Origin: Ostreococcus lucimarinus
Taxonomy: Eukaryota
Strand: one strand, 5' to 3'
Length of the DNA: 64,000 nt
Assembly: GCA_000092065.1 (NCBI GenBank)
Contig: CP000584.1
A program made the translations under genes and the position numbers. The notes below the pieces were generated by a model. It searched no databases, was not told the DNA's origin, and saw only the letters and a program-made list of their open reading frames with translations. This document shows positions 6,782 through 53,672 of this stretch, piece after piece (within the stretch, counting starts at the first letter, position 1; every line of letters begins with the position of its first letter).

Positions 6782-6927
6782 CCACGGTCAAACACGGATC
6801 ACTCGTGACGAAACGCCGAAAAGGGCGCTTTTAACGCCGTCGACGCGACGCGTCGGTGACGACGCGGCGGTGGCGGGCGCGGGAAAGCGTGCGCTAACTC
6901 TAATGTGACCTACACGCGCGATTGGCG

Positions 6928-7905
6928 CTACCTATGACGACAGGGGGTCGTGGCGTCGACGCTACGCGCGTCGGGGGGCTCGGGACAGAGCATGTGTCCC
7001 ATGATGGGGACGCATTTGTCTCGGCACGCCCCGTACGCGACGCCGCGGACGCGAAAGTCGCGCGGTCGAGACGCGCCGATCCATATTTCGGCGATCGACG
7101 TCGGAGTGATCCCGAGGGTGTGCGCCCAGGCTAAGAGTTTGGGCGCGGCGCAATCCGCGCACCCGCACGGAAGCGCGGCGACGGGCGGATGAAACACGTC
7201 GCGAAGCGGACGAACTTGTCCACCGAGGCTCGGTAATTTATAACCTTCCCAGATTTTATCCTGCAACGCGCGCGATAAGGCTTTGCGCTCGGACTTCATG
7301 TCGTCGATGCGAGCGCGCAAGCGCGCCAAGATTTCGAGTTTCGGCGCGACGGCGGCGTCGCGCGCTTTCTTCAACGTCGACATCGCTCGTTTCGACGCGC
7401 GACTCTCTTCATCCAGCGTTTCGACGATCGCATCGCTCGCCCCGTCCGCTCTGGCTCTTCGTCTCGCCTCTTTCGCGCGTTTCGCCTCCGCCGCGAGCGC
7501 TTTCGCCTCGTCGTCTCGCGCCGCCGTCGCCTCGCGCACCTCGGCGCGCGTCATCCTCTCCTCCATCTCCGCCTTCGCGATGCGCTCGCTCAGCGCCTTT
7601 ATTTTCCCGTGTTCACTCTTGTAATACGCCGTATCGTGCGTCAGCTCCCCCACCGGCGGCGCCCATCCCTCGACTCTCCACTCGCCGAACAGTTGTCCGC
7701 TAAACGCCTTCAGCGTCACCCGCTCGCCCGTCGTCTTCCGCCTCCCCACCAGCGCGCCGATCATCTTCCCTCCCTCCGCCGTCTCTAAATATTTCGCATC
7801 GAACCGCGCGTCCGCGACCGTCGCGTCGTAATCCATCCTTCCGCTCGCCCGTATCCTCTCCGCGACGTCTCGCGCCGCCGCCTCCGCCTCCGCCGTCCTC
7901 GCCAT
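6928..7905 (-). CDS. Hypothetical protein with a C-terminal Cys-containing domain
   Basis: Non-low-complexity sequence runs from MARTAEAEAA... through KMIGALVGRRKTTGERVTLKAFSGQLFGEWRVEGW to ...ALPCGCADCAAPKLLAWAHTLGI...CRDKCVPIMGHMLCPEPP. The ORF-track N-terminal extension (7906-8700) is judged to be an antisense shadow of the bilin reductase gene. Confidence 0.4.
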   Translation of the reverse strand: MARTAEAEAAARDVAERIRASGRMDYDATVADARFDAKYLETAEGGKMIGALVGRRKTTGERVTLKAFSGQLFGEWRVEGWAPPVGELTHDTAYYKSEHGKIKALSERIAKAEMEERMTRAEVREATAARDDEAKALAAEAKRAKEARRRARADGASDAIVETLDEESRASKRAMSTLKKARDAAVAPKLEILARLRARIDDMKSERKALSRALQDKIWEGYKLPSLGGQVRPLRDVFHPPVAALPCGCADCAAPKLLAWAHTLGITPTSIAEIWIGASRPRDFRVRGVAYGACRDKCVPIMGHMLCPEPPDARSVDATTPCRHR

Positions 7906-9142: not shown

Positions 9143-9243
9143 CTCTCGCCGCGACGTTGTATTTATTACGCCCCTCCCCGTCTCGCCCGCGGCGTCTCGC
9201 GTTTATTTTCGTAACACCTTTCGCGATCCCACACATCGCGACG

Positions 9244-28509: not shown

Positions 28510-29712
28510 TTACTGCGATGACCATAGCGATCGCGTGCCGTAGTTTTTCGTCTCTCGGTACGCGGGCGCGGTGTAGAGAAATTGCAACACCGGTCGATTG
28601 GCGAGCGAGTCGTTCGCCATGCCGCGGTGGAGTAAGCGGTAGTCGTACGCCACGCTTTGACCCGCGTCGAGAATTCCATCGAAGGAGAGTCGTAAGATCA
28701 AGCTCGCGTCGCCAAAACCGATGAGTTTACTCGTCTTGTGACTGCGCATGAAGAACTGCGTAAAACCGGTTTCGCGCGATAAATCGATCAACGGCATGAA
28801 GACGCAGACGCCGTACGGCGGTGCGTGACCGCATCCCGTGCGGACGTCGCACTCGACGTCGAGATGTCGACCGTCTGCGTGCCACTCTTGATTTTTCGCG
28901 CCGGGTCTGGAATACACCACCGACACGTGCACGTTCCAACCGTTCGGCATGAGCGCGTCGACGAGCGCGCGCCACGGCGCGTCGTCGCGCGCGAGCGCGC
29001 GAAGCGTCGCCCACTCCTCGAGTTCTAAATCTACTAGAGCATCGAATCGCTCGCCTCCACGCGAACCAATCTCTCGAAACGCGAATCGATCGCGCCCGTA
29101 CACTATATCCCCGAACGATTCCTCGAACCTCCGCTCGACGCGTTCCACGAATCGCTCCGTCGCCTCGCGAATTTCCCGCGTCGTCTCTTCGTCCACCGCT
29201 TTCAAGCACGTCGCCACGCCCGCGTCTGCGAACGCCGCCACGCGCTCTTCATCCGTCCTGTCCTTCCGTCCCCAATCGAGCGTCTCTTTCGTCACCGCAT
29301 CGATCGATCCCAGCGGCACGTATCCCGGCGCCGTCATCGTCGTCGTCGCCTCGGCGTCCCAACCGCGCGTCGCCATCCACGCCCGCACCCGCCGTTCCAG
29401 CCGCGCGTCCTCGCTCGAGCACGCGCGACACCGCCACGCGATCGTGACGTCCATCGCGCGCGCGTCGTCGTCGTCGTCGGCGCTCGCGCGCGCGCGCTCG
29501 AGCTCGACGACGCGCGCGTCGCGTTTCGCCGTCCATCGCAGCGCGGCGAGGTGCGCGGCGAGCGCGTCGTCGTCGCGCGCGCGCGTCGTCACGCGCAGGA
29601 CGTGCGTGGAGAGCGCGCGATCGTCGTCGTACAGCGCCTCGTCGCTCGCCTCGTCGTCGTCGTCGTCGTCAGTCATGACGATGACTCGAGACGCGACGCC
29701 GAGTGGCGGCAC
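28510..29712 (-). CDS. Phytanoyl-CoA dioxygenase (PhyH)-like Fe(II)/2-oxoglutarate oxygenase
   Basis: Jelly-roll region with HxD (NQEWHADG) and distal His (YDYRLLHRG). Acidic N-terminal tail (MTDDDDDDEASDE). Confidence 0.6.
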   Translation of the reverse strand: MPPLGVASRVIVMTDDDDDDEASDEALYDDDRALSTHVLRVTTRARDDDALAAHLAALRWTAKRDARVVELERARASADDDDDARAMDVTIAWRCRACSSEDARLERRVRAWMATRGWDAEATTTMTAPGYVPLGSIDAVTKETLDWGRKDRTDEERVAAFADAGVATCLKAVDEETTREIREATERFVERVERRFEESFGDIVYGRDRFAFREIGSRGGERFDALVDLELEEWATLRALARDDAPWRALVDALMPNGWNVHVSVVYSRPGAKNQEWHADGRHLDVECDVRTGCGHAPPYGVCVFMPLIDLSRETGFTQFFMRSHKTSKLIGFGDASLILRLSFDGILDAGQSVAYDYRLLHRGMANDSLANRPVLQFLYTAPAYRETKNYGTRSLWSSQ

Positions 29713-29737
29713 TGCGCGCCGCGCGCACGGAAGGAAC

Positions 29738-29780
29738 GATGAGCGATCAGGCGGTGTTGCTGCTCCGGAAGCAGCTCAAA
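29738..29780 (+). CDS. UBC7: UBC7/UBE2G-type E2 exon 1 (MSDQAVLLLRKQLK + 1 nt)
   Basis: ATG 29738. Donor AAAG|GTGCGAC at 29781. Without splicing, the N-terminus runs into an Arg-rich non-homologous stretch. Confidence 0.7.
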
Positions 29781-29948
29781 GGTGCGACGCGCGCGACGCG
29801 ACGCGCGCGACGCGGATTCGGGCGCGACGCGCGACGCGACGACGGCGCGAGCGATGGGATTTCGACCGATCGCTGGCGGCGGTGTCGCGCGTCTGTTTCG
29901 GCGCGCACGCGCGGGAGACTGACGCGAACGCGTCGCGAACGCGAGCAG

Positions 29949-30403
29949 AGCTTTCGAGAAACCCGATCGAGGGGTTCTCCGCGGGTTTGGTGGATGATTG
30001 CAACGTGTTCGAGTGGCAAGTCACGGTCATGGGACCGCCCGAGACGCTGTACGAGGGCGGGTTCTTTACGTGTAACATGTCGTTTCCGAAAGATTATCCG
30101 AATAAGCCGCCGACGGTGAAGTTCGTGAGCGAGATGTGGCATCCGAACGTGTACGCCGATGGACGGGTGTGCATATCGATCTTACACTCGCCTGGGAATG
30201 ATCCCAACGGGTACGAGGACGCGAGCGAGCGATGGAGTCCGGTGCAGACGGTGGAGACGATTATGTTGAGCGTGATTTCTATGCTTTCCGATCCGAACGA
30301 TGAGAGCCCGGCGAACGTAGACGCGGCCAAGGAGTGGCGTGATGATTATCCGGCGTTCAAGAAGCGTGTGGCGCGATGTGTGCGAAGGAGTCAAGAGGAG
30401 TAA
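29949..30403 (+). CDS. UBC7: UBC7/UBE2G-type ubiquitin-conjugating enzyme exon 2
   Basis: Acceptor gagCAG| at 29946-48. ELSRNPIEGFSAGLVDDCNVFEWQVTVMGPPETLYEGGFF...HPNVYADGRVCISILHSPGNDPNGYEDASERWSPVQTVE...NVDAAKEWR has the HPN active site plus the acidic loop insertion of UBC7/UBE2G. Spliced product is 166 aa. Confidence 0.85.
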
Positions 30404-30534
30404 TCGCGCGGTTGATTCGGCGCCGATGCGAAAAATCGGTGACTCAGTAGACAAACAACTCAGCAAATAGCGAGAGCCCAACGGCGCTCTATAGATAGAA
30501 GCTCGATGATGACGATGCTGAAGCAGCTCCAAGA

Positions 30535-30542
30535 ACGACGGC

Positions 30543-30575
<33 letters not shown>
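30535..30575. repeat. (GAC)n microsatellite in the UBC7-AlaRS intergenic spacer
   Basis: gacgacgacgacgacggcgacgacgacgacgac. A TGTAA follows at 30585-30589. Confidence 0.7.
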
Positions 30576-30751
30576 AGATTTATTTGTAATACGACGCACT
30601 GGAATTTGTTATGGAAGTGTTGCACGCCGTTTGCACGTCATAAAGAATGTGCCACTAAAGTGACAGTCATTTTGATCCGACGCGCACATCGCGCGCGCGA
30701 ACGCGCGCTAATCACTGGAGTTTTTTTATGGATATTGCATGATGTTTTAGT

Positions 30752-33700
30752 TTAAATGGCGAGTTTCGCGAACGCTTCGGCGGCGGCGACGGCATCTGGA
30801 ACAGCGTCGACGTTCGGTCCTTGACCTTGCGCCAAACCACCCTTACCGCCGCCACCCTTACCACCGAGCGGGCCGCACGACGCCGCAAGCCAGCCCTTGA
30901 CGTCGATGCCGACATCCGGAGGCACGCTGCAGTAAACGAACTCTTTACCCTTGCAGTTCGCCAAGAGTGTGCACGCGATACCTTCGGCGAAAGCGACCGC
31001 CGCCGCTTCCTTCATAGCGCCAGCATCAGTACCGTCCGCCAGGGTGGCGACAAAGTACTTTGCACCCGCAGACTTTGTCGCGGCGGTTTTTTCTTGAACG
31101 TCTACGATGGCTTGCGCCTTGGCCGCCGCGGCGGCTTCCTTTTGCGCGTCCAGGACTCGCTTGACTTGACTAGTGACAGCGGCACGAATTTCCTCGCGCT
31201 GAATGACGGGAAGAACTTCAGTGTCGACGACGTTTTTCAACACACCCAGTTGTTTGTCGAGCGCTTCGCCGGACAACGAATCGCAACTCTTCACCAGAGC
31301 GAGAACGTCCGCAGCGCGCGCGAGCGCCGCTTTAGCCCCTTCGCGCGTCGCCCCGGTGATGCGACGAATACCCTTTGCGATACCACTTTCTTCAAGAATG
31401 ACGAATTGCTCCGCGAAATCGGTCGACGCCAAGTGGGTGCCGCCACAGAACTCTATGGAGTAGTTTTTCCACTTGTCATCCGACGGGTTGGCGAGCAAGT
31501 CGTCGATGCTCGGACCTACAGACACCACACGAACGGGGTCGGGGTACACCTCACCGAACACCGCGCGTAAACCGTTGATAGTCATCGCCTTGTCTAACGC
31601 TACCTCGCGTTTGTCTACTGCGAGCTTTGATTTGATTTGCTCGTTCACGATGGCCTCGATTTCAGCAATTTGTTTCGTCGTCGCCCCCTTGTTGTGAGAA
31701 AAATCGAATCGCAACTTTTCTTCATCTACTAACGAACCTTTTTGATCGACACCATCACCCATCACCTTGCGCAACGCATAATTGAGCACGTGCGTCATCG
31801 TGTGGTTGGGCATGATGTTATCTCGACGGTCATAATCGACTGCGCACTTCGCGGCATCGCCAACACTCACTGTGCCGGATACGTCGCCGGTGTGCATCAC
31901 GTACGCCGCAGCAACCTTGACATCCGATACGGACATCGAGCCACTCGGGGTGGTAATCAAACCCGAGTCACACACTTGACCACCCGACTCGGCGTAAAAC
32001 GTCGTTGCGTCCATGAAGAACCCGTAAGGTCCTTCGGCGTCGGAGGTGGATTTTATGAATCCGCTTGGCGACATGATGGCGGTGACGGTGCTTTCGAGCG
32101 TCGGTCGTCCGCTTGCGTACTTTTCTTCATCCTTCGTGATTGCCACACCATTGTTTTGCAACCACGCAGTGGCTTCCGCTTCGAACAGCAACTGCACACC
32201 TCCAGACTTCTTACCGCCGGCGCGAGACTTTTCTTGCGCTTCGGCAAACGCCTGCGCGAAACCTTCATTGTCGAGCGTAAAACCGTTCTCCTCGGCCATA
32301 AGCTCCGTAAGATCATTCGGGAAACCATACGATTCCCACAACAAGAACGCTTCCGGACCAGAAATCACTGTTCTACCTTCTTGCTTAGCCGCCGCGAGAA
32401 CCTTGCCGAATTGGTCGATACCCTTTTGGAGCGTTCGGCCGAACGACTCCTCTTCGTCGGCGATGATTTCGGTAATGTGCGTTTGCTTGGCGACGAGTTC
32501 TGGGAATACAGCTCCAAGCTGCTGAATCAAACACGGGACGAGTTTGTGAAAGAAACCTTGCTTTGCACCGAGCTTCTCACGTCCGAAGCGGACCGCTCGG
32601 CGAAGGACGCGACGCAACACGTAGTTGCGGCCATCTGACCCGGGAGCCGCGCCATCGGCGATGGCGATGGACAATGTGCGAATATGATCAGCGACAACGC
32701 GGTAAGCCATGTCTTTCTCCCCGACGTCCTCCTTGCCGAGAAGGCCAGTGTAGGGTGCGGCACCACTGATGCGCTGAATCTCCTTGAAGATGGGCATAAA
32801 GACATCCGTATCGTAATTGCTCATCTTGTTTTGTAAGATCGACGTCAGACGCTCGAAACCCATACCGGTGTCGACATGCTTCGAGGGAAGCGATTTGAGA
32901 ACACCGCCCTCTTCGCGATTGTACTGAATGAACACGACGTTCCAGATTTCGAGGCAGTTCGGGTCATCCATGTTCACCAAGGAGGCCGCGTCTCTGCCAC
33001 CGATGCGATCATAGTGAATCTCAGTGCATGGACCGCACGGGCCGACGTCGCCCATCTCCCAGAAGTTGTCCGCGCACCCAAATGGCATGACGCGAGACTC
33101 CGGAAGATACTTCAACCAAATTGCCTTGGCCTCTAAGTCGGGTTGCAAGCCTTGCGACTCGTCACCGCCAAAGTACGTCGCATACAAGCGATCGGGCGCG
33201 AGACCGTACACATTCGTGAGAAGATCCCACGCCATACCGATGGCTTCTTCCTTGAAGTAATCGCCGAAAGACCAGTTACCCAACATCTCAAAGAAGGTGT
33301 GATGGTACGTGTCTTTTCCAACATCGTCCAAATCGTTGTGCTTCCCGCCTGCGCGAATGCACTTTTGCGTATTCGTCGCCCTGGTGAGCTTGGCAAACGC
33401 CGTCTTCGGATCAGCCTTGCCCAGGAAAATCGGTTTGTATTGATTCATGCCCGCGTTTGCGAAGAGAAGCGTGGGGTCGTTGACAGGCACCGCTGGCGAT
33501 GACGGCCAGTTCACGTGGCCCTGCTTTTCGATGAAGTAGTTGACGAAGGTATCTCTGACGCGCGAGGACGGCCATTCTTCTACGTACTTGACCGGCCGCG
33601 GCAACTCCTTCGGTCCACTAGGATCGTACGTCGCGGCTTGCTCGCACACCGGCATCGTACCCACGGATTCAAGCCATTCTTGCGTCGCGTACACGGTCTC

Positions 33701-34336
33701 GATCCATCGCAAAAGCTTCGGGTAGTTGGCTTGCCATTCGCTTCGCGGGACGAGGTAGCAGTACACGTTGCTCAAGCCGCTCGCGCCGACGATATCAGCG
33801 AGCGAAAGCGCGTTATCTACCAAGAACACAGCATCGTGCGCCGATAAGTACGCCTCCACGGCCGCCATGAACCCAGCCACGATCTTTTTCGCCTCGCTCT
33901 CCTTCTTTTCATCGTACACGATTCCCCGAGCGGCGCCGATGCCCACAATCGGATACAACCACTGCGGTCCGCACACGTCCACGACGTTGAAAGAATCCAT
34001 CCAACCATCAATTCTCGCTCGTGTCCACGCATCATTGGGGTAAATGCTCCCTCCCGTAGCCCCAGTGCTCGCCAAATACCTCGCGATCGCGTTACTTTCA
34101 AACGCCGCGCTCCCGCGCTCGACGTTTTCCACGCACGGCACCTTTCCAAACGGGTTCTTTTCCTTCAAGTACGCCGCGCTCTTGTTCGTCGTCCCCATCA
34201 CGCACTCCGCTTGCTCCAGCGTTTCATCCTTCACGCCAGCGAACCGCGCCGCCGCCGCGATTCGATGCGACCGCGTCGTGCTTCCGTACAGTTTGAGTCC
34301 CATCGCGCCAAAAACTTTGCCACGGATCGAGAGCAA
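30752..34336 (-). CDS. AARS: Alanyl-tRNA synthetase with an N-terminal EF1B-gamma-type GST-like domain, 1194 aa
   Basis: AlaRS catalytic core (FANAGMNQYKPIFLG, WSFGDYFK, motif 3 region), tRNA-recognition and editing domains (HTMTHVLNYALRKV...CGGTHL), and C-Ala. The first approximately 230 aa match the GST-like fold of EF1B-gamma/aaRS appendages (MGTTNKSAAYLKEKNPFGKVPCVENVERGSAAFESNAIARYLA). Confidence 0.9.
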   Translation of the reverse strand: MLSIRGKVFGAMGLKLYGSTTRSHRIAAAARFAGVKDETLEQAECVMGTTNKSAAYLKEKNPFGKVPCVENVERGSAAFESNAIARYLASTGATGGSIYPNDAWTRARIDGWMDSFNVVDVCGPQWLYPIVGIGAARGIVYDEKKESEAKKIVAGFMAAVEAYLSAHDAVFLVDNALSLADIVGASGLSNVYCYLVPRSEWQANYPKLLRWIETVYATQEWLESVGTMPVCEQAATYDPSGPKELPRPVKYVEEWPSSRVRDTFVNYFIEKQGHVNWPSSPAVPVNDPTLLFANAGMNQYKPIFLGKADPKTAFAKLTRATNTQKCIRAGGKHNDLDDVGKDTYHHTFFEMLGNWSFGDYFKEEAIGMAWDLLTNVYGLAPDRLYATYFGGDESQGLQPDLEAKAIWLKYLPESRVMPFGCADNFWEMGDVGPCGPCTEIHYDRIGGRDAASLVNMDDPNCLEIWNVVFIQYNREEGGVLKSLPSKHVDTGMGFERLTSILQNKMSNYDTDVFMPIFKEIQRISGAAPYTGLLGKEDVGEKDMAYRVVADHIRTLSIAIADGAAPGSDGRNYVLRRVLRRAVRFGREKLGAKQGFFHKLVPCLIQQLGAVFPELVAKQTHITEIIADEEESFGRTLQKGIDQFGKVLAAAKQEGRTVISGPEAFLLWESYGFPNDLTELMAEENGFTLDNEGFAQAFAEAQEKSRAGGKKSGGVQLLFEAEATAWLQNNGVAITKDEEKYASGRPTLESTVTAIMSPSGFIKSTSDAEGPYGFFMDATTFYAESGGQVCDSGLITTPSGSMSVSDVKVAAAYVMHTGDVSGTVSVGDAAKCAVDYDRRDNIMPNHTMTHVLNYALRKVMGDGVDQKGSLVDEEKLRFDFSHNKGATTKQIAEIEAIVNEQIKSKLAVDKREVALDKAMTINGLRAVFGEVYPDPVRVVSVGPSIDDLLANPSDDKWKNYSIEFCGGTHLASTDFAEQFVILEESGIAKGIRRITGATREGAKAALARAADVLALVKSCDSLSGEALDKQLGVLKNVVDTEVLPVIQREEIRAAVTSQVKRVLDAQKEAAAAAKAQAIVDVQEKTAATKSAGAKYFVATLADGTDAGAMKEAAAVAFAEGIACTLLANCKGKEFVYCSVPPDVGIDVKGWLAASCGPLGGKGGGGKGGLAQGQGPNVDAVPDAVAAAEAFAKLAI

Positions 34337-34736
34337 TCACCGTCGTTCCCTCGCGCGCGCGGCGCGTTCGCGGGCGTCGGTCGTGGACTTTCGCGTTCGA
34401 GTGCGTTCGCTTCGCGTCCGTTCGCTCGCGCGCGGACGATCGGCGTGCGCGACGCGCGTGGGAGTGACGTTCCATTCGCCGACGCGTCGAGGCGGCGGCT
34501 TTCGCCCTATCCACGAAAGAAAGACCTGAAACCACGCGGGTGCGAAAACCAAAAACGCGGGCGGGCGAGAAGGCGAATCGAGGTTTTAATGCACGTTCAT
34601 ACATAATGCTGTAGGTATTCTCAAGCGCGAAGACCGAGCGAAGAAGTTTGACTAGGAGCGCGAGGCGAACGAACCGAGCGCGGTGCTACGCCGCAGGGCG
34701 GCGCGAGGTCGACGCGATGCTCACGAGACGCGGCGC

Positions 34737-37745
<3,009 letters not shown>

Positions 37746-39664: not shown

Positions 39665-39895
39665 ATCGAGGGTTTCGTTCATGTAGATATTTTAGGAGTT
39701 GTAACGCGCGCGATTCGCGCGATTCTCGCGTTCGTCTTGAGCCGCACGACGTTTTGATCCTCGCGAGAGCGTCGTCGCGCCGCGCGAGATTCAACCAGTC
39801 ATCGACATTCCGAACCGGTGCGGCATCATACGGCGACGCGTCGTCACCCGATCGCGTCGGAGGCGAGACTTGCGGTTATTCCGGAGTCGACGCGC

Positions 39896-42800
39896 GATGT
39901 CGCGCGCCGCGGGCGCGTCCGCGCCGTCCACGGCGAGCTCGCACGTTGCGTTCAGTGGCTGGCTGACCAAGCGCGGAGGAAAGGATTTATACGGTAAAGC
40001 CACGTGGCGCCTGCGATATTTCGTGCTTCGACGACCGAGACACGCGAAAGAGCGGGCGTGCGTGCGGTACTTCGCCAACGAACCCGCGGACGGGGCGGAG
40101 AGCGCGGCGAAAGGGGAGTTTGCGATTAACGGACAGAGTGCGGTGCGAATCTTGGATTCCGATGAAACGTTCGCGGAATTCGGGCTCAAAGCGCACAAGT
40201 ATGCCGGGAAGCGGATGTTTGCGTTTCAGACGATGCCGGGGCAGGGCGGGAAGAGCGCGGCGCTTGTCGTGGAGGCGGAGGATCTGACGACGATGCAACG
40301 GTGGGTGACGGCGATTAGCGAAGCAATCACTCGGGCAAGAAGTTTGGAGAATGAAGCGGCGAGTAAAACCGGTTTGGCGGTGTTAAACGCGCAAGTCGAT
40401 GGCGATGAAAACGATGTTTTACGAGGGAAGAACTTTCGGGGGACGCTTGAATTGGCGGGACTTTGCGGACCGCTCGGCGACGGCGCGCTCCCCGTGCATT
40501 TGGACGCGTGCTGGGAGAATTTGACCTTTGTTGATCTCATGGCGGATTCGTGCTTGAACGAAAAGCTCGGCAAGATGCGACGATCGAAATACGTGCGCGA
40601 GACGTTGACGAGCTTGGTCGACAGTGCGATCACGATTGGACGGTGCTTGGGGGCGTCGCCGATTCCCATGAGCGGGCCAGAGTCTAACGCGATGAGCACG
40701 ATTCGTCGAGCTCTTGATGATATGCTCGCACTCGCTCGCTTGATGCCAGTCGGTACGAAAGACAATAATATTTTTGTTTCGTTTCTTGCGGCGCTGTTGG
40801 ATCGCGTTCGTCAGCTTCGACCAGGTGAACTGATCATGTGTCCGGGAGGTTGGGCAAACGAAGAAGGCGGCGCTGCGGTGATTTACACCATTCACCGTCT
40901 CCCCGCACACTTCGTTGTGAGCTTGACCAACTGCGGCGACGGTGTGGAGTTTCATCCTATTCAAGCTGATCCTGCGAAAGATGCTTTCAAGTATATTCAT
41001 ACCATTCAGTTGATGGACGTTCCGATAGCCGTCGCGATGGACTCCTCGGCGTGGGCGCTGCTGTTCCGCCCGTTGATTTTCCCTCAAGACGCCGCCAGTG
41101 CGAAAGACATGATTTACAACAAGCTCCTTCCCATGATGAATGGTCGTCCTCTACTCGCTTCGGTCACCCCCAAACCACTGCGCACTGTTAAGTTTGCGAA
41201 ACAGCCAAGAGGACGCGATTCAAGCGGCGTCTTTACCGCACTCGAAGCCGCTCGATGCGGTCTCGCTAGTTTAGGTTGCCCGCCGAATCGTGCAGATGCG
41301 TTGGTGAACCTTGGAGTAAGGTTTGTCATGCTTGAAGAGGCCAAGCGCGATTTGGAGCGCGTGAACATGATCGGTGCAAGCGCTCTGGTTACGTTGCAAG
41401 CGGCGTGTAGAACGGTTGCGGAATACGCGGCGAATCATGCCGACTTGTGCGTCGAGGCAGAAGAAGCAAGTAATGGTGAGCCACCGAAGAAAACGACAAT
41501 GCCCCGAGAAACGCTGGCGCAGATGTTGCGCTCAGTTGAATCGGTGATTCTGCGGACAAAGGCCCTGCACGGCGCAACGACACTACCGCCGGCATTGCAA
41601 CCGCCGAAGGTACCGATCACGGCGTGCGCTTTACCACTCTTCAACCGCCTCGCCAGCGAAGGTAACGTAGATTCGTTAGCAGGTGCAGCTAGAACGCCAC
41701 CGATTTTGAGGCCAGTCGAACTCACATTGGTGCCGGATGCCGTGGCGAAGCTAGAAGACGTACCCAAGGCGTTGAGAAACGCGCTGCATTGCTGCACGAT
41801 TCTCGCAAACCAAGCGGATTTGATGCCAAACTCTTACGCCTTGCGCGTGAGCTTGCTCGTGCACTTGTTTGTACATGTCCTGCCGGCACCTTTACCTATT
41901 ACGCACCCTGAGAGACATACGAAATGCTTTTGGGCATCGGTGAACACCACCTATGAGCTCCAAGCTGAAATTTTGAGGAGTCTAAATTTGTTGCTGCGGC
42001 ACTTTTCCGCCGCAGCGCTTTCAATCAGCGTCACGCAGACTTTCGATGCAGCGCGTTTACTCACCATTGCCAATTTCGCGGCAATCGCGGATGCGACGCT
42101 TCGTCTTAAAGTAGCAGACGCGCCGTCTGCGTTCATGCAACACTACGCCGGATACGCCGAAGGTCCGATTTCGGCGTTTGGTTTTGAAATCGGTCCGTTC
42201 GCCGTTGAGGCAGAGTACTTGCGTTTCCACTGCCCAGAACGTACCATTAGGTTGACTCAGACGCTGGATTACTTTCATAGCTTGAAGAAAACGATCGAGA
42301 GCGATCACATGATTTACCGTTGGGAGAATGAAGCCGCGGGTGGGATGTCGTTTGGCGTCGGCGAGGCGAGACTCATCGATCAAGTCTGTTTGCAAATGGG
42401 TATCGGCCGAGAAGATCCAGAGTACTTGGCAAAGTATCACAGTGGCGAGTTGCGTGAGTTTGCCGATAGCTATCCGGAAATGAGTGCACTTCGAGATATC
42501 ATTTTCATGTTCAAGTTACTCATGGCGCCGACGTCAGACGACCTTCCAGAGCTCGCACGTTGGAAGCCCATCGACGCTGCGTTGGATTGGAGTGTGGCGC
42601 GACGCGAAAGTTCGCGTAGTTACTTTGACTTGGAAGTGCGGGCTTTCGGTCGTGCTTTGACTATTCAGCCTTGGAAAGAACCAGAGGTAGAACAGGGCAC
42701 GTCTAAGACAGGTTGGCGTAACATTTTTGGCGGTGGATTTTTCGCAAGAATGCAAGATCGCCGGCCGCGATGCCCACCTTCGGGCGCCAATCCCAGCAAC

Positions 42801-45800
42801 CTGGCTGGTCAGCGAGTCGACACCGAAGAAGACGTCCTTCATTTGCGCGAGGTACCAACGTTTGACAATCTGCTTAAACCAAGCGAGTCGGAGCTGCTCC
42901 TGACTTACTTGACCGCTCCCATGATTCGTTTGCCGCTCGTGATGAAGCTGTTCGCAGAACCGACACGCGTGCGCGGGTTGACGCACAACGACATTCAGAG
43001 TGTTTTAGACGCTGTGATTTTCGAGCCCGGACCTTGGGCGCCTCCAGAGCCGACGACAATACCAAAGGAAATACCTGCAACAACGCGAGCGCATATGGCA
43101 ACGCCGACTGGTTTACTCGTGCACGAGCTCATCAACTGTCCGGCGCCTCTCGCGGATAGCGCCGAAGAGCTGTTGGCGTTGAGTTTGGAATTAGATACCG
43201 GGCGTCACGACGCACCGAGCGCACAAGGGGTGTTGTTCGCGTGTAGGATGCTCACTAGACTGCTGGCGTTCGTAGATAGCATCCTCAAGGCAAATTCGCT
43301 CGATTCGGAATTCACGACATCCACTGGCTTGACGCGAGGGCTGGATTGTTCGTCGGCGTCTTTGTCGGCACTCGCGGACGTCAAAGTCCGCATCACCAAA
43401 GCACTCAAGGAGAGATGTCGACCAGTGATTCAGCGATGGTTACGTCACGCGGTGAAGAAAAATGCAATTCGTGCGGCTTGCGCACTTCACGCACATCTCG
43501 CGTACATGTACTACTGGACGCCTCGAGTAGAAATAGACAAACAAGCGGCCCTCATTATTCTCACGGCACAGCAGTACATTTTCGTGAACTACCACTTCAC
43601 AGATACACCGGATGGAAGCGAGACGAGCAATAGAAAGTTGGCGGACACGGGGAGTATGAGCGGTGTCGATACTGGTCTCGGCTTTGCGCCGACGGAGATT
43701 TTTGACCTGTTCCAGCGAAAGCGACGGAGCATTCTGGAATGGGCGGCGGCGAATCCGCAAGACGCTAATAGCATTCTGGAGAACGTCGTCGAGACGCTCA
43801 CTACTAAGAAGACAGATGGCTCGAACTCACCAACGAACGTGTTGGATGCAGAGGACACGTTTAGCGCGAAGCGTGCGTGGCGCCGTGCACCAGGTGCGGG
43901 TGGTGCTGGTAGATTTGTCAGCTACGTGTCGGATATCCCATTCGCAGATCTCGTCGAGAGGGACAAACGGGCCGCGGCGCTTTTACTTCAAAACCATCGT
44001 CACTACGGAGAGTGGCTTCTGGAGACGACGCTGCAGTCTTTCGATATGGAAATTAATGCTCAGCTCGGCGAATTCACCGTTCGAAAGAACCGATTGCGTC
44101 ATTTAGAAGCTAGTATTCGTGAAATGCCGGACTTCGTCGCAGCGCTGGGACCAGTGCTCGCCAAGCGCGGGATTGAGCCGTCGCACTTCCAAGAACTCAG
44201 CAAAGGGGACGAGCTCGTGATCGGCGATTCGGGGGATGTCGTTCACTGTGCGGAGGTAAAGAATACGGAGCATCGTACATGGATGCGTCTCGTGGGTCTC
44301 AATCATGATATTCAGTTGTGGGATCGAGATCCAAGACCGCCGCTGAACGAATTTACGCGACCGCTCGTTAGCCGCGTGCAGACAAAGTCACAAGCATTAG
44401 AACTTTTGGGTCGTGCAGTCGGTGCTGGTGGTCTCGCAAGCTGCGAGCAATGGATTCTTTCTATTCTTGATCCCATCATCAAGGGTCCGGGCGCGGGATA
44501 TCTGCACGGTGTCGAGCTCTTTTTACCCAAAAATACAATTCACGGGTCCATAGCTCGCCTCGCCGGCACTGGCGCGCCTGAGAATGCGGTGAGCGAACCT
44601 TGGAGTTTTTGGAAGCGAAAGACTGTGAGCACATCCAATGACGATCAACGTCGCGTGGAAGAGGCCAAGCAGCTCTTGACGGAGGTAATGATCGTTAGAG
44701 AACCTCCTCTGGTACAAGTTTTCCGCGTGGAATCGTACGGTCGACGTTGGCGACGTTCGTTAGTGTTCGCATCAAATGCTTCTTTCTGCCTCGCAGATAT
44801 CGATCCCGATGGTCAACCAATTCTAAAGGATGAAAATGAACGATTTTTACTATCTGCCGCGCGTCTAGGCTCGCGAGCTCCGAGTTTAGTCGTCACGAGA
44901 CTCTTGAATGGCTTCATCGGACGCGAGTCGTTTGTTCCGGCGCGACATTTGCGTGGCTTACTGCCCCAGGTTTTGCTCGAAGAGTACCAGTTTTGGCGAA
45001 GCGAAACTACTGGTGATTTATTTGGTACCGCGAATGAAAGTGCTTCGCACCCGAATACTATGATCCATGTGCGATTGGGCTATGAAAACAATTTACTGCT
45101 CGATGGAGGATTTCCCGTAGATACTCGCGCCATCGTGCGAAGACTTCCAACAATGGGTGCTGATGGGATTTCGCGTCTCCCCCCGCTAGATGGTTCGTAC
45201 GTCGATGGTCAGCTTACATTAGTAGATCTTCTGTATGCGCCCTCGCTGGCGGGTGAACAAGGGCGCGCTCTACTCGCGCTCACCAAGTCTCTCGCCGCCG
45301 TCGAAGGATTGGCACATTCGCTTGTCTGGTCATCAAAACCTGGGCTCGAAAGTGGGCCGAATGAGCACATCGCGGGTGTGTGCGATATATCGCGTGTTGA
45401 ACTTCCAAGACTTGGTGTTTCGTTCAATGCGATAGAGTCAGGTGGTGCTATTCGCTTGGAGTGTGAGGAACACGCCGGGTTGTTTTTAGCGCAAAGACGC
45501 AACGCCGCGCTCGAGATTCTGCTTACCGGGCTGCCGCATGCGCTTCTTCTCGAAGCTCGAGACGGTGCACTGTCTGTGCTATTATCGGCGAGCGCAATAC
45601 CTCGACCCGCGGCGACTGCGTCGGACTTCGCGCATGGAGCGAGCACGGGACTCGGCTCAGATCTCATAATCGATCGTTGGAGCACGCAGTGGGTGGAAAA
45701 CATAGGCAGCACAAAGCACTATGTGTATCCTGTGCATCCTTCGCATGCGACAATCAGTGCAACGTCGATGCCAGCCGCTCTATATCTCGCAATCCTGCGA

Positions 45801-48800
45801 TTCATAGGTCGCGATTATCTCGCCGTGCTCAGACTTGCGGAACTCTGTGTGTCAGAAGCGGTGCCCACGCCAGAGGAAGCGCAGCTGTGGGACGCGCTCG
45901 CGCATGCGTGCTCTTTGGATCCAAGCCCCGACGCCACAGCAGTTCGCGTGAAGCTTATGTTGATGGTAAAAGACACTCCAATCGAACCCCGACTCGCGCT
46001 GAAGTGGCCACCCGTGGCGGATGTACTGAATTACGTCAATTGCTGGTCGTACATCAGCGCAAATTGTCGCCTCACTGGACATGAAGAGCTCACCGCGATC
46101 GAAAGCTTGGTTACGGAGACCATGGCAAAGAAGAAAACTTCCAAGTTCAAGGCTGTCATTAGTTTCATGTTCCCCGGCTCCAAGAAGGCGAGCGCGGCGG
46201 ATATGAGTATGGATCCAACGAAGACCCCAGAGTTGTTGAATCGTGCGGCGTACTTGAGGCAGCTCGTGGGCGGAATCGCGCGCATGAGCGCCGGATCTAC
46301 GCCGACGAGTTCTGGATTCCCTCTAGTATATCCAGTGGCGCCAGAATATGACAGATTCGATACCGTGGACGACCTGACTTGCTTGTCCGATAAGGTAACG
46401 GGTGAAGGACCTCTGGGCAAACTCGCGGGTCTGATTCAAACGTACAATCGTCCAGATGACGTGAGCGTCAACGGTAGTCAGGCGCTCGCTTTGATCGGCC
46501 AATGGATCGACAAGGAAAAGTTCAATCTCGACGGTAACTTGGGATTCCCGTTATTCTTTGAGCTCATGACTGGAACCCTGCCGCTGCGCGTTCTTCCTGG
46601 TGATTCTCCCCATCGTTGGGGTTGCGTTCTCCTTCGTTTTGTGCCAAACGAGCAATCGATGAAGTGCGGTACACTCATGAGTACGTTACGCGTACTTGCT
46701 TCCAGCCCCAACATCGCGCAGGATTGTCCTAAAATGGAAGAACAGAGCGTTGGTCAACGGTTTAGTTCAATGTTTACTTCGGACGGTGCGATAGGTATGT
46801 TACTTCGCAAAGTACGACCGTACCTGCAACAGCGAAAAGAGGAATTCCCCGGTCGCATATCTTGGACGGGCAAGGAGTACTTGACGCAGAGCATATACGA
46901 GTCTGACGTGCAGACTTGGGCGCGTACGATTGCTACTGGCGGCAGATGGGCGCTGACTCGATTCATGAATACATCGTGCTCTGAGCGCGAGTTCTCTCTC
47001 AAGTCGAGCGATAGCGCTGAGATGGCTGGTGGTACCACGTGGAGTGGGAAAACACTCCAGCACGTGGATCTGGAGATGCTCGTGAAGCGCCCACTCGGTG
47101 TCCTTGATTTGAACAAGTATGTCGTTCCTCTTACGGAAGATAGAGCCGATGAACTCGCGGAATCCGTCGCGCTCGGCGGTGTCGGTGGTTTGCCGTTTGA
47201 CGTCAGCCAGCATCCAGCGGCTACGACGTCCGTCGCTAGACAGATGCTCAATCGTTTGCGCGCCGACGTAACCGGAGCATCAGACAAAGCTAAGGCGCGA
47301 CGCATGAATGGTGATTTTAGTGCGGTGACGTTGAAGGGTTTCTCCCCCAGTGATACTGCCGCGATCGCATCTGAAGCGGGTGCAGGCCGCGCCGGTCATG
47401 CCGCGGGGACCGCCCGTGCGGTTCTACGTGAATTGCTAGAAGGAATTCGTCGTGTCACCGCCGACGATAAGGCGGCCGCATCTGAGGCTATGTCAGCTGC
47501 ACTTGCTACGGCGAATGGTTTACGAAAAGACGTCGAGTCTGGGACAAAGATGTTACGTCTCGGATTGCAGCGCCGCGCAGGGGCTTGGGCCGAGGTGACA
47601 TTTGAAGATTTGGTTGAGTGTTTGACGTGCGAAGGCGGCGAACACATTTTATCCCGTTTGTCTCCAGATGTGACCGCAAAGCAAATAGTTGATGCGTTAT
47701 ATTTGACGTCGCAAGCGTTGCTGCTCACGCTTCGCGCGACGCTAGCCGCGAAAGCGGCGGGTATGGTGGCTGACACGCTCATAGCGTTGACGAATTGTGC
47801 AAAGACAGCGGCTATTGACGGTATTGATTCTGTCGATCGAGACTTGAGGCTCAAAGCTCTGGCAATCGCGGAGTTGATTTCAGTGGAACGACATTACTTC
47901 CAGGCGGACACTGCGAATCCATTCAGCAAGGCAACGCGCTTGATCTTTGATCCTCGTTTGCTAGTCTACGAGTACAGTCAGAGCATCGTGCTGCGCAAGC
48001 GCCAAGTCGAGCTGACTCGAGATTTCGTTGACACGGCTGAGAACGGTGGCGGCCAGTGCGCACAGATGCTCATGGGTGAAGGTAAAACAACTGTGGTGTG
48101 TCCATTACTGGGCTTCGTTCTCGCCAAGAGCAGCTCTGTCGTCGTCCAAGTAGTCCCTCACGCACTTCTCGAGTTTTCGCGAAGCACTTTGCGCAAGGCG
48201 TACTCAGGAGTCATCAGACGTTCGGTCGTTACCCTCGAGTTCAACCGATACACATCCCTCGCCGATGGCTCAATACTCGCAACTTTAAGGAAAGCGAAAG
48301 AGAATCGAGCCATCGTCATCTCGTCACCGACAAGCATCAAGTCTCTCGCGCTTAAATTTTTGGAAGTCTGCCACCTGCTCGATCAATCGTACATCGCTGA
48401 CCGTGATGGCAAGACCGGTGGTATGCTCGCACAAGGAGCTGATTTAGTCAGTCGCGTTTTTGGTGGCGCTAAAAGTCGGAGTGAACGTGTTGCTGAGGCT
48501 GGTGGGTTAACCATCGAAGAAATAAACACATTGCGCTCAGAGGCAACGGCGGCCGCGGAAATTTTTGAAATTTTCCAAACTGGCACGCTTATTTTGGACG
48601 AAGTCGACTTGATTCTTCATCCTTTGAAATCCGAACTCAACTGGCCAATGGGTCGACGTATTCCGCTCGACTTCAGCAAGGCTGCGTCAGGCGACGGTTT
48701 GAGATGGAAGCTTCCATATTACATCCTTGACGCCATCTTCGCAGTCACGTACGGGCGCTCGACGGCTTCGGAGGCTGAAGGTTCGCAAGAGGCAATCGAT

Positions 48801-51800
48801 CTGCTCGACGGTATACGCGCCGCGGTTCGAACGGCGATCGAATCGAAACAATTGCAGACATCACCGCATCTAGCGTTGCTCGATAAGTCTTGGTATCAAG
48901 ATATCTTGCGTCCGCTCTTGGCGCAGTGGACGAGCATTTGGCTGCGTGCTCATGGCGCGTTGCGTGGCATGTCAGAGGCACTCATTATGGCGTATCTTCT
49001 GCGGGGACCGGGCGCGGCTGAAGCAAAAGCGCAGCTGAATCGTGAATGTGAAGACGAGGCTGTGAAGATGACCAACCTCGCGCGAGATTGGCTTTGCTCT
49101 CTGTTGCCTCACATGCTCGCGAAGATTAATCGCGTAACGTTTGGTTTGTTACAGCCCGCGGACGTATCGCTACTCGAAGAAGTGACGGGATCGCGTCTGC
49201 CGAAAACCCGTAGACTTTTGGCAGTTCCTTTCGTGGGTAAGGATATTCCGAGTCGAACGAATGAGTTCTCACATCCAGATGTCGTTCTCGGGTTGACAAT
49301 TTGCGCATACCGCCTCGAGGGTTTGCGCCGTGCCGACTTCAAGCAAATGCTTCGAATCTTAATGGAAGAGTACGATAACGAGGCCGGTCCTCCTCAGAAG
49401 CGACCGGCTGCTCGTAGGTGGGCGGACTGGGTGCGTACGACTGGGAAGCGAGTGCGAGGTGAAGCGCGCGCTGAGGCAGCGCTCGCCGCAAGACGACGCG
49501 GCGTTTCGCAGCAAACCGGAACTACAAATGTCGGGGATACCCGCGGATTGGCGTGGCTCGAAGACGACACCGCAGGTCTGCAAGACGACGAGGTTTGGCC
49601 TTTGCAGCTTATCGATCTCAGAGATCACGATCAGGTTGAAGAAATCTACCAACTTCTGCGAAGGACGCCGCCGTGTATCGAGTATTATCTCGACGAATTT
49701 GTCTTCCCTGAAACGGCGCAGCATCAAGATTTGAAACTGAGCGCCACTGGCCAAGAACTCGGTGGTGATGTGTTGTTCCCCAACCGACTCGGTTTTAGCG
49801 GTACCCCGAGCGACTTACTGCCGCTCGAGCTCGGTGCTCCGCGATACGAATCCGGCTCTGACGCCAAGATGCTGGCATACTTGACGGATCCGGAAACCGC
49901 AGCGACGATGCCTTTGGACGTTGATTGGAACGTGCAGACTCTCCTCACCCGTATTGCGACGGTAGACCCACCGATACGTGCGCTCATCGATACGGGTGCG
50001 CTTGTCACGGGCATGTCCAACCTCGATGTCTCGAGATTCTTACTCGAGAAGGGTCTGAAATGGGCTGAAGGATGTGTGTTCCTCGACGAAAATGATCGAC
50101 AGATGATTCTCATGCGCAAAGGATGGGAAGTCATTCCTCTTCAACGCGTCGCCGCAATGCCTTTGACGAAACGATTTACGTTCTATGATCAAGTTCATAC
50201 GACCGGTATGGACATCAAACAGGCCGCGGCGTCGCAGGCAGCCATCACCCTCGGTAAAGACATGTGTCTTCGCGATTATGCGCAGGGTGCTTGGCGCATG
50301 CGCGGTTTGGGCAAGGGTCAGACGCTAAAGGTGATTGTGATTCCGGAGGTTGCGAGACTCATCTCGCACGAAGTTGCCAAAGGAGGTGGACAGATCCCAT
50401 CGACGCGCGATGCTGAACTCGCGACAATGTCGGCCGAAGCGGTCGAGAAGCGTAAGTTACGAGACATCACGGCTTGGCTCGTCGTGAACAGTATGCGAAG
50501 TGAGAATATTCAAGCCGGTTTGCTCGCAGAGCAACGCGCGGCGAATATCTGGAGAAAGCATTCATACAGGAAGCTTGTGTCATCGCCCACTGCACCGGGA
50601 ACACCAAAGGCGGAGGGTATGATTCACGCGTGCCTTGACGTCTTCCGAGATCGCGTGTCGTACGTCGTGGCGAATGTCATTCCTCAAAGTGTATCGCCTT
50701 CAGAGAAGTTAGCGAGGAGCGTACAGCAGTTCGGACATTTGCTCGACGATAGTCCTCGCGCAAAAGAGCAATTACGATTGATCGTGAACGACGTGAAGCA
50801 AATGGAGGAGACGACGAATGCGGCGTTGAAGCGGATTCGCGCTGGCACACACATGGCTCCAGATGCGGCGGAGTCCGGTGATCAAGGTTTGGCTGGTGGT
50901 TTGGAGCACGCCTTGGACCTCGAGCAAGTTCAAGAGAATGAGGAAGAACAAGAAAATGAGCAAGAACAAGAGCAAGAGAAGGAAGAAGAACGTGAGGAAG
51001 AAATCATCGAGGAAGCCCCAGATGGCTTGAAGTACGTGCGCGACGACGAGAAACAGCCGTCGTGGAGTTACGAGTCTTTGTGCAAAAGTCCAAGCTCAAT
51101 GGCTCAAGGTTTCTACCCACTCAAAACGTTCAAGATACATAAAGGTGTCGGCAAGACTACAGCACCTTTGGATTTCCCGGAGTATCTATATCTATCGAAA
51201 AATTACTTCCGTGAAGGATGGGCGCTCAACGGCCATCGACGCTTGAAGAATCTCACCGTCGTGCTGGACTGGGTACCGGATAGCAGCGCTTTATCGACCG
51301 ACGCCGGTGGTAGCGTCGCGGCGGGTACGTTCACAGCAGACCAGGAGTCAGCGCTACGAACTGCGTTCGATATGTTTGACTCTTCCGGAAACGGTCGTTT
51401 GACAGAGTCCGACCTCCGAGAGGTTTTGCGTGAGATCGACGCTTGCGTAGAAGACGATGAGCTTCGTCTTCAACAGTTGGCGCGTGAGGTTGCTGCAGAA
51501 TCACGCACGTTCAATACCGGGGGTAAGTCATCTGGGACGTCTTTCGAGGAGTTAAAGCGCGTCCTTCGTTCGAAGAACATTTACTCATTGCAACGTGGGC
51601 GATACTACGTCGCGTTGTCTCTGGCTGAAGCCGAGTCGCTGCGCGTTGTCATGCATCTCACGAAGGGTAGTAAAGCGAGTGACGGCAAACTGATTCCATC
51701 CAAACTCACCGAAGCTGCGTTGCGAATCGGTGGCGGTACGCTCATCGATAACACGTCGAGATTTACGCCCGCACAGGTGTTTCAAGGTGCGACGGCCGAG

Positions 51801-53672
51801 CAATGTTTCAGATTTCTCGACAGTCAGCTGGATTTCGAAGACCGCGAAGTTTCATTGCTGCTTCGTGCGCTCCAAGGGTCGTCGTGCGATAAGCGAGCGC
51901 AATTTTTCGTGTCTGTTCGGGCGTGCAGGCGGCGCGCTAAAATTCCATGGGCGTCGTCGCCACTCGCCAAGGTTCTCACTACGGTGGATGAATTCCATTT
52001 ACTCGCGTCGAGAGCACTCGTCGCTCGTGTACGTACGGCGCTCAAGTCCAAACGTATGCGTCTTTTAGATGCGTTCCGGGCTTTTGACGGAGATAACATT
52101 GGAAAGCTTACGTATGAAGCGTTATATGGTGGCTTGTCGTGGCTCGGCCTTTCGCTCACGTCGGCTCAAATGCTCGAGCTGGCTGCGCGTGTGGACAAGA
52201 CGCACGACGGCTACATCAGTCGAGAAGAGTTCGAGGAAGCTTTCGGGCCAGATGACGATTGGGTTTTAGATGGCGATTTCCACGAACAGGTTCCCATACC
52301 GACTCTAGCTCCCTCGGTGCCAGTGCCGACGTCTCAGCTTGCGCAAGTGAGCTTGATGGATATTCTCGGCGACGTTGGAAGCGACGAGGGGTCGAAATCG
52401 TCGAGTAAGGATCTTGTCGCTCCTGAGATACAGTCGCCATCGAAGGTAATGAGCACGGAAAATTTGAGCATCGATGACGGTACAGGACTTGGTGACTGGG
52501 GCGCGCTCGGAATGGCGGCGACTTTACCAGTTGTTGCGAAGAAGAACCCGCCTCTCGCCAAGGAACAGCCCAAGCCAAGCGCGAACGATCCGTTTGGTTT
52601 GGGTCCTCCAGCCGGCGCGTCGTCAACCGCGTTCGATGATTGGTTGTCTGGCGGTTCGGGCAACATGCTTGGCGGTGGCTCGTTGAACGATCCCCTCGGC
52701 ACTCAAGCAAACCCAAATGCCGCAGACGGCTGGGAAGGCAACGACATGATTCAGCTCGACACCTCGACTGGTACCATCGCCGCGCCGGCGCGAGATAAAA
52801 TCCAGGCAAGAGCTCTTGTGGATCCGGCAAAGGAAGCTGAAGAGCGCAGGCACCGCCAAGTCGATTCCAAGTTGACGAGCTCGGCTCTTAATGGGTTCCA
52901 AGTAGCCGTCGTGCACCAAAAATCGTTCCAAAAAGTTTGGACGAGCGACGGCACTGGAAGCCGTTCGACTGGAAGCGTGTGGCAAGCAAACTTGGGTAAA
53001 TCGACGCTGAAGAAAAAGACTGAGCGCATTTCGCTCGGTCACTACGCTTCGCCACACTTTTCGCAACCGAAACCTGCGCCATTTGCTGTCGAAGTGACCG
53101 ACATAAATGCGTTCGCGCTCACTGGTTCGAACTATATGCCACGAGTGTTGGATCGCTTGTTCCCACATCCGAGCCGGTTCAGACAGGTTTGGGGACAAGA
53201 ATGGAAAGGAACGGCGGTGTATGCGTGGACTCCCGTGCCGCCACCTGGATGCGTAGCCATTGGTATGGTGTTGACGTCTATCCCGCAGGCACCGGACGTG
53301 TCCACCATGCGATGCATTCCAGAGAAATGGGCAATAAAGCCAACGATGGAACCCCAACTCGTGTGGACGAATGAAGGCAGTGGTGGTCGTCCGGCGAGTA
53401 TTTGGTTGGTGAACTCGCTCGGTTTGTTGTACGTGAATGTCGGGCACAATCCTCCTCCGGCGAGAGATGTTTGGGACATCAAACGAGGTCAGCTCACCGC
53501 GGACCAGGTGCTTCAGTATCAGGCGTCGGCGCCGCAAACGTCCTACGGCGGAACAGGAATTTCGAGCGACAGCTTTGACGGACCGACGTACAACCCTCCG
53601 CGGCCTCCACCCCCGAGCGGCAACAGCGGTGGATCAAACGCTTTGCCCGCGGGATTAGGATCGCTGATTTAG
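39896..53672 (+). CDS. Giant multidomain protein (about 4592 aa, single exon): N-terminal PH domain, central P-loop NTPase module, acidic E/Q repeat, two EF-hand pairs, beta-rich C-terminal domain. Function unknown.
   Basis: PH domain: VAFSGWLTKRGGKDLYGKATWRLRYFVLRR...GKRMFAFQT...MQRWVTAISEA. Walker A MLMGEGKTTVVCPLLGF and Walker B TLILDEVDLILHP at about aa 2730-2900. EF-hand loops DSSGNGRLTESDL, DGDNIGKLTYEAL, DKTHDGYISREEF. Uninterrupted ORF with even codon usage. True ATG at 39896 (the ORF-track start at 39870 is TTG). Confidence 0.85.

Follow-up and report, generated by a model that had tools for sequence, protein, structure and literature searches.

An EF1Bγ-type GST domain at the N-terminus of alanyl-tRNA synthetase in Ostreococcus lucimarinus and other green algae

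Why should an alanyl-tRNA synthetase (AlaRS) begin with a glutathione S-transferase (GST) domain? The question is raised by a gene on the minus strand of a 64,000-nucleotide stretch of Ostreococcus lucimarinus DNA (GenBank assembly GCA_000092065.1, contig CP000584.1; this whole stretch is called the window below), where a single open reading frame (ORF) at 30752..34336 encodes both parts. In the curated table of AARS Online a GST domain is given for CysRS, GluRS-E, MetRS and ValRS alone, and AlaRS has no such entry (PMC11580382); the initial annotation, made from the sequence of the window, was thus right to call a GST appendage non-canonical for AlaRS. The analysis presented here shows that the locus is one intron-less gene for a eukaryotic cytosolic-type AlaRS with an N-terminal GST-fold domain derived from EF1Bγ. 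That the fusion is real and of EF1Bγ type we regard as practically certain. The gene is composed as follows (aa, amino acid residues of the product):

30752..34303, minus strand: complete GST-AlaRS coding sequence, 1183 codons (stop 30752-30754, ATG 34303-34301).
34304..34336, minus strand: 11 in-frame codons upstream, from TTG; probably 5' untranslated region and noncoding, the ATG being where database proteins and orthologues begin.
34070..34303, minus strand: N-terminal thioredoxin-like subdomain of the GST (aa 1-78); Pfam GST_N 32.5 bits (cutoff 20.9), NPFGKVP cis-Pro loop and FESNAI motif, βαβαββα in the AlphaFold2 model.
33665..34030, minus strand: all-helical C-terminal subdomain of the GST (aa 92-213); Pfam GST_C at aa 131-206, 27.1 bits (cutoff 20.7).
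33575..33664, minus strand: tail of the EF1Bγ-type module (aa 214-227, VGTMPVCEQAATYD), which aligns to human EF1Bγ LGEVKLCEKMAQFD, and Pro-rich connector (aa 228-243).
31826..33559, minus strand: AlaRS class II catalytic and tRNA-recognition region (aa 249-826); Pfam tRNA-synt_2c PF01411 658 bits, HHTFFEMLGNWSFGDYFK and DTGMGFER motifs.
31358..31534, minus strand: core of the AlaRS editing domain, tRNA_SAD (aa 924-982); PF07973 44.3 bits, CGGTH inside and HTMTH upstream of the core.
30764..31063, minus strand: C-Ala/DHHA1 domain (aa 1081-1180); Pfam PF02272 38.7 bits.

The ORF is present exactly as initially described, with 1194 codons if counted from the TTG; the coding sequence itself has 1183 codons from the first ATG, without interruption, and the 11 upstream codons do not belong to it. 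The gene neighbours identify the window as eukaryotic nuclear DNA (they include kinesin, CDC45, an ASPM-like CH/IQ protein, dynamin, a TIP49/RuvB-like protein, a branched-chain aminotransferase and a ubiquitin-conjugating enzyme), and a TTG start is therefore irrelevant here. The first ATG, at 34303 and with a G at both -3 and +4, is the start that can be used, and it gives a product of 1183 amino acids with the N-terminus MGLKLYGS. GST-AlaRS orthologues begin at the equivalent Met. Since a stop codon lies directly 5' of the TTG, the GST domain has no N-terminal extension, and the product is predicted to be cytosolic. The organellar AlaRS would have to be encoded elsewhere in the genome.

Residues 244-1183 make up a complete AlaRS with catalytic, editing and C-Ala domains. 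The NCBIfam alaS equivalog TIGR00344 is matched with 788.5 bits (cutoff 457) over model positions 2-847, which is a full-length AlaRS match, and the Pfam matches of the protein are all above their gathering scores. The class II signature HHTFFEMLGNWSFGDYFK as well as the editing zinc motifs HxxxH (HTMTH) and CxxxH (CGGTH) can be read directly in the translation.

The N-terminal part was compared with known folds at the level of domains, sequences and predicted structure. GST_N and GST_C both score above the Pfam cutoffs, giving the GST-like region a significant match to the fold. The AlphaFold2 model of the domain (residues 1-~240), computed on an alignment of 21 AlaRS-GST domains, has canonical GST topology, with a mean confidence score (pLDDT) of 93.5 and a predicted TM-score (pTM) of 0.90; strands are placed at residues 3-6, 29-32, 57-60 and 65-68 and helices at 12-21, 43-48 and 70-80, followed by the helices of residues 92-213. 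The pLDDT stays at 86-95 through residue 240, and the tail after the GST fold is modelled confidently against the domain.

By sequence and by fold, this domain stands next to the N-terminal domain of EF1Bγ. A single-sequence phmmer search with residues 1-240 against all chains of the PDB found the human EF1Bγ GST domain (5DQS/5JPO) with E=6e-15, while the best ordinary GST reached 4e-8. With a profile of 21 AlaRS-GST domains the human EF1Bγ GST scored 167 bits (E=4e-48) and the next entry, an ordinary GST, 116 bits. Foldseek returned 699 GST matches in the PDB at E<=1e-3, of which the best six are all human EF1Bγ GST (TM 0.72-0.87), phi-class GSTs coming after them. An exhaustive HMMER search of 1.84 billion representative proteins yielded 736 matches at E<=1e-3; besides AlaRS fragments the nearest were proteins of EF1Bγ length, the EF1G C-terminal domain is found in 47 of the 135 best relatives, and several are named elongation factor 1-gamma in their source. 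Of 65 columns with a conservation of 70% or more in EF1Bγ, 46 carry the same residue as the majority of the AlaRS-GSTs in a joint alignment. The mean identity between AlaRS-GSTs and EF1Bγ GST domains is only 29%. Motifs common to both in the C-terminal subdomain are D-x-W-x-D, W-x-Y-P-x-x-G, FLV..(S/T)LAD and P....RW, and the alignment of the tail extends to EF1Bγ residue ~217; the module takes in the opening residues of the linker between the EF1Bγ domains.

The initial annotation had assigned the domain to the EF1B-gamma type and had likened it to the GST modules of the Met and Glu-Pro synthetases. The first assignment is borne out by the best sequence and fold matches in the PDB, the nearest database relatives and the shared conserved columns. 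The second did not hold, as EF1Bγ and enzymatic phi-class GSTs are much nearer to the domain than are the degenerate GST-like domains of the Met/Glu-Pro/AIMP scaffold: MARS1, EPRS1, AIMP2, AIMP3 and Arc1p are all absent from the top 60 profile matches and the top 50 fold matches in the PDB. The protein is nevertheless not an EF1Bγ but a bearer of an EF1Bγ-type domain, because Pfam finds no match to the EF1G C-terminal domain PF00647 in it and a complete AlaRS follows the GST module instead.

Several unusual architectures were seen near the EF1Bγ-type GST domains. The best match to the AlaRS-GST outside AlaRS is a tandem double-GST protein (P0146); others are a HisRS with a C-terminal GST (P0278), a GST joined to a WHEP domain (P0192) and a model with four EF1Bγ copies (P0149). 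Further models, P0277 and P0286 among them, have an EF1Bγ with an inserted NDK or an EF1Bγ after NPL4. Some of these are probably gene-model fusions.

The in-frame fusion described initially is genuine, as GST and AlaRS lie in a single frame with neither a stop nor a frameshift between them, and it recurs in independent data. An orthologue from an independent metagenome assembly (contig L003) has the same length of 1183 amino acids and aligns without gaps over all residues at 84% identity. The same architecture was detected in more than 30 independent proteins in a search for full-length homologues. Complete fusion ORFs were found in the transcriptomes of Pterosperma CCMP1384 and Pyramimonas, and genome-derived fusions in Pycnococcus provasolii / Pseudoscourfieldia marina (GHP12252.1, UniRef A0A830HYD1), Pedinophyceae sp. 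YPF-701, Trebouxia, Coccomyxa, Myrmecia and Haematococcus. The gene order PhyH-like, ubiquitin-conjugating enzyme (UQ_con), GST-AlaRS, branched-chain aminotransferase (BCAT; Aminotran_4) and TIP49 is common to the window (28510-37745), L003 and a third contig, L001.

The fusion is thus not special to this organism; many green algae have it, and it stands in the databases without remark. The identical 1183-amino-acid sequence is present in the NCBI and JGI collections as "alanyl-tRNA synthetase", in a 90% cluster with 190 members, and its closest relatives there, 59-84% identical and from environmental assemblies, bear the same name. The sequence and its Pfam domain matches are public, so the protein itself is not new. 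A description of the GST-AlaRS architecture was not found in the open-access full-text literature, although absence there is no proof.

The fusion is present in Mamiellophyceae-like sequences, Pyramimonadophyceae, Pseudoscourfieldiales, Pedinophyceae, Trebouxiophyceae and Chlorophyceae. In the streptophyte alga Mesotaenium endlicherianum, a partial gene model (P0169, jgi/Mesen1 ME000434S07324) comprises the GST and the start of AlaRS and ends at a probable intron; over this stretch, connector included, it shares 48% identity with three full-length fusions (P0052, P0053 and P0058), which fall together with streptophyte AlaRS. It would seem, then, that the fusion is older than the split between chlorophytes and streptophytes and was lost before the land plants. 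A neighbour-joining tree separated AlaRS-GSTs from EF1Bγ in 160 of 200 bootstraps (a rough figure, obtained with sampled EF1Bγ GST domains), which is consistent with a single origin. A single gain of the GST module, around or before the time when chlorophytes and streptophytes parted, is probable.

AlaRS without a GST domain was found in land plants, Closterium and Chlorella sorokiniana, and also at a Micromonas-like locus. On the Micromonas-like contig L002 the synteny TIP49-BCAT-AlaRS is kept, but the AlaRS (5001-7844) begins straight at MDPMKEWPAQRIR, and the 447-bp intergenic region upstream of it (4554-5001) contains no GST remnant. This AlaRS (P0041, 947 amino acids) belongs to a 307-member cluster that is abundant in marine metagenomes, and the AlaRS tree places it within GST-bearing relatives. 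Sequence comparison thus indicates that the absence of the GST at this locus is a secondary loss. Because the L002 gene is both syntenic and nested among GST-bearing relatives, the picture given by these alignments and trees is that of an old domain which has mostly been retained and repeatedly lost, in land plants and in at least one Mamiellales-like lineage. Where the domain is present it is not a decaying relic. Between the window and L003, both parts are 84% identical at the amino acid level and the ratio of nonsynonymous to synonymous substitution rates (dN/dS) is 0.16 in the GST part and 0.08 in the AlaRS part; the GST part is accordingly constrained coding sequence under purifying selection.

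A profile search across the GST-to-AlaRS junction returned mostly short AlaRS fragments, plus the Mesotaenium model and P0341, and gave no systematic distribution. P0341 is an AT-rich protist fragment of 294 residues on a 922-nt JGI contig, in which GST_C/Arc1p_N_like precedes the N-terminus of AlaRS; it may be a non-green GST-AlaRS. Core chlorophyte and pedinophyte fusions carry a short W-G-x-G-P-S-P-like motif in the connector (alignment columns ~270-285) that is absent from the clade of the window. This may be a linear interaction motif.

An internal start that would produce an isoform without the GST had also been considered. The candidate is Met217, which lies in the tail at the boundary between GST and AlaRS. 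It is kept solely in Ostreococcus- and Bathycoccus-like sequences and is absent in Micromonas-like and more distant fusions, and the candidate was rejected for this lack of conservation; an isoform of this kind is unsupported. The peptide that follows Met217 is acidic and Pro-rich and appears unlike a presequence or targeting sequence.

What the module does was considered from its kinship and its conservation. The initial annotation had suggested that AlaRS may be recruited into a GST-mediated translation-factor assembly, which homology and the precedent of ValRS and eEF1B would allow. In our analysis the most likely mechanism, with a probability of roughly 0.4, would be docking on eEF1B. The GST module would serve as a protein-protein docking device with no chemical role and would attach AlaRS to the eEF1B nucleotide-exchange complex, either because the N-terminal domains of eEF1Bα/β, which are the normal partners of the EF1Bγ GST, would bind the AlaRS-GST, or by GST-GST pairing of AlaRS with EF1Bγ. 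Ala-tRNA(Ala) would then be made beside eEF1A and passed on directly, and the arrangement would be an algal counterpart of the vertebrate ValRS-eEF1H complex. Since the connector measures only ~16 residues and the tail after the GST is modelled against the domain, the module would be held close to the AlaRS catalytic domain.

The precedent for such docking comes from vertebrate ValRS, where the EF1Bγ-like N-terminal GST domain is indispensable for eEF1B binding and Val-tRNA is channelled to eEF1A (PMC4394549, PMC9458455). In structure 5DQS, the contacts to eEF1Bα are made by the EF1Bγ loop K147-E155 and helix N186-N196 (PMC9458455). In the AlaRS-GST family, FLVG is retained as the core of this loop and RW..T in the helix; the columns shared by EF1Bγ and AlaRS-GSTs include L152/V153/G154 and W190/T193, all of them within the two contact segments. 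A scaffold rather than an enzyme is also suggested by lineages in which the motifs of the glutathione-binding site (G-site) have decayed and the domain is kept: in P0050 and P0056 just the GST_C half is detectable, and in Haematococcus the Glu-Ser motif is lost.

A number of observations weigh against docking on eEF1B. Plants and algae are not known to have the leucine-zipper δ subunit that is part of metazoan eEF1B. The clade of the window has FLVDN where FLVGE would be expected, the conserved Gly of the contact loop being replaced by Asp, and the equivalent of helix 186-196 is only partly conserved. Whatever its nature, the function of the module is dispensable, because the domain was lost without replacement at the syntenic Micromonas-like locus and in land plants. 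Most lineages, the window among them, show good conservation of the G-site residues (cis-Pro loop and Glu-Ser), which fits glutathione binding equally well. The ValRS precedent runs through eEF1Bβ/δ, with the site unmapped (PMC9458455), and a pan-plant co-fractionation map does not contain AlaRS in any complex, although this map is dominated by land plants, which lack the domain (bioRxiv 10.1101/815837).

A more far-reaching proposal is a green-algal "AlaRS-eEF1H", in which AlaRS would be a stable subunit of eEF1B held by its EF1Bγ-derived GST. It would be an ancient counterpart of ValRS-eEF1H that arose independently before the land plants and was later dropped by embryophytes. We put this proposal forward tentatively and consider it somewhat doubtful.

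The alternative that survives best is a scaffold of the multi-synthetase complex (MSC) type. The GST module would pair with an algal Arc1p orthologue, the N-domain of GluRS or AIMP-like proteins, and AlaRS would be part of an MSC and not sit on eEF1B. The synthetase complexes of yeast, humans and apicomplexans are assembled on the principle of GST-GST heteromers (PMC4394549, PMC10452860), a plant MSC with an ARC1 orthologue is known (bioRxiv 10.1101/815837), and AlaRS associates loosely with the MSC of Trypanosoma brucei (PMC4394549). In addition, the Pfam family Arc1p_N_like is also matched by 83 of the 135 nearest relatives of the domain. However, no solved GST-like domain of an MSC comes nearly as close to the domain as EF1Bγ does, and AlaRS is reported neither as a core nor as a peripheral member of the plant MSC, though the plants concerned are without the domain (bioRxiv 10.1101/815837). 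We consider this scaffold unlikely.

Bacterial AlaRS oligomerises through C-Ala, whereas eukaryotic cytosolic AlaRS is monomeric, and a canonical GST dimer could make the otherwise monomeric enzyme dimeric. The model shows an intact canonical GST fold, and classic GST homodimers are seen in crystal structures of the human EF1Bγ GST (PMC10452860). As several lineages have lost the domain, AlaRS function needs no dimer, and homodimerisation as the purpose of the module appears rather improbable.

A chemical role is the next candidate, in which a glutathione-binding, redox-sensing or weakly catalytic GST would link AlaRS activity or editing to the redox state. Conservation in the 21 sequences is at least 90% for the NPxGKVP cis-Pro loop and for the Glu-Ser of FESNAI, both of which also occur in EF1Bγ, a weak GST activity is described for rice EF1Bγ (cited in PMC10452860), and the next-best structural neighbours of the domain are active phi-class GSTs. 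The conserved residues are also structural in the fold, though, and by reading of the alignments the position of the catalytic Ser of phi/theta GSTs is apparently occupied by a conserved Arg, as in EF1Bγ. The persistence of the domain after loss of the G-site motifs, described above for Haematococcus, P0050 and P0056, likewise speaks against such a role, which we regard as very unlikely.

That the gene is an artefact, either a chance read-through joining neighbouring GST and AlaRS genes or a chimera of assembly or annotation, is effectively refuted: gene callers do split the locus in the error-prone long-read assembly L001, with the two parts in different frames, and truncated database models exist (P0002, P0005, P0169), but the L001 breaks are three close frame changes typical of indel errors, the window has a single stop-free frame over 3549 nt with a connector of just ~16 residues from the GST tail to the first AlaRS motif, and the architecture is identical across many independent assemblies, complete transcript ORFs and a gapless orthologue alignment.

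Docking on eEF1B remains our preferred reading, and comparison with known systems shows what is shared and what differs. Vertebrate ValRS (VARS1, the ValRS-eEF1H subunit) likewise has an N-terminal GST fold homologous to the N-domain of EF1Bγ (PMC4394549, PMC9458455, PMC10452860), and in both proteins the appendage is confined to certain lineages and catalysis does not depend on it. The two were acquired independently, by a class I ValRS in deuterostomes and by a class II AlaRS in green algae. ValRS has an extra Lys-rich tRNA-binding linker in place of the short connector of GST-AlaRS, and association with eEF1B has been demonstrated for VARS1, while GST-AlaRS is known here from its sequence. 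In eEF1Bγ (EEF1G) the N-terminal ~220 residues are homologous to GST-AlaRS, into the LGEVKLCEKMAQFD tail after the GST fold; eEF1Bγ then continues with PF00647 where GST-AlaRS has the synthetase, and the GSTs of the fusions form their own group. The GST-like domains of MSCs (MetRS, GluRS/EPRS, AIMP2, AIMP3 and Arc1p) also represent the GST fold used as an appended module, and GST-GST or GST-peptide docking is expected for them; they are more divergent, many being without the G-site motifs that the AlaRS-GST retains. The cytosolic/mitochondrial AlaRS of land plants (Arabidopsis type, ~955-1005 amino acids) has an orthologous body, ~55% identical over 80% of the query, and lacks the GST domain; many of these proteins have a presequence-like N-terminal extension instead.

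Elsewhere in the window, an unbroken ORF of 4600 codons on the plus strand (39870-53672) encodes an N-terminal PH domain, DUF3638, DUF3645, several EF-hands and a Vps62-like C-terminus; DUF3638/DUF3645 are those of a large family of P-loop-type proteins. The local G+C content is as high as 0.73 (8001-10000), with many GC-rich stretches (for example 34957-36273 and 35184-37745). Long overlapping Arg/Ala-rich ORFs on both strands are by-products of this composition and not genes, and mechanical ORF lists over-call here.

With this gene AlaRS joins the GST-bearing synthetases, and the list of such enzymes is extended. Eukaryotic synthetase complexes are put together mainly through appended GST folds, and AlaRS has so far counted as a free-standing enzyme without one. 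The algal relatives of plants thus show the same solution as vertebrate ValRS, which was then lost toward the land plants. If the domain is merely a dimeriser or a relic, the finding amounts to a modest note in comparative genomics. If an AlaRS-eEF1H is true, it would be a second natural system for channelling aminoacyl-tRNA and would bear on why one synthetase is wired to the recycling of eEF1A; the fusion also touches the question asked for ValRS, "why only ValRS?" (PMC9458455). Tractable algae such as Ostreococcus, Micromonas and Chlamydomonas could be used for testing whether tethering of a synthetase to eEF1B channels aminoacyl-tRNA.

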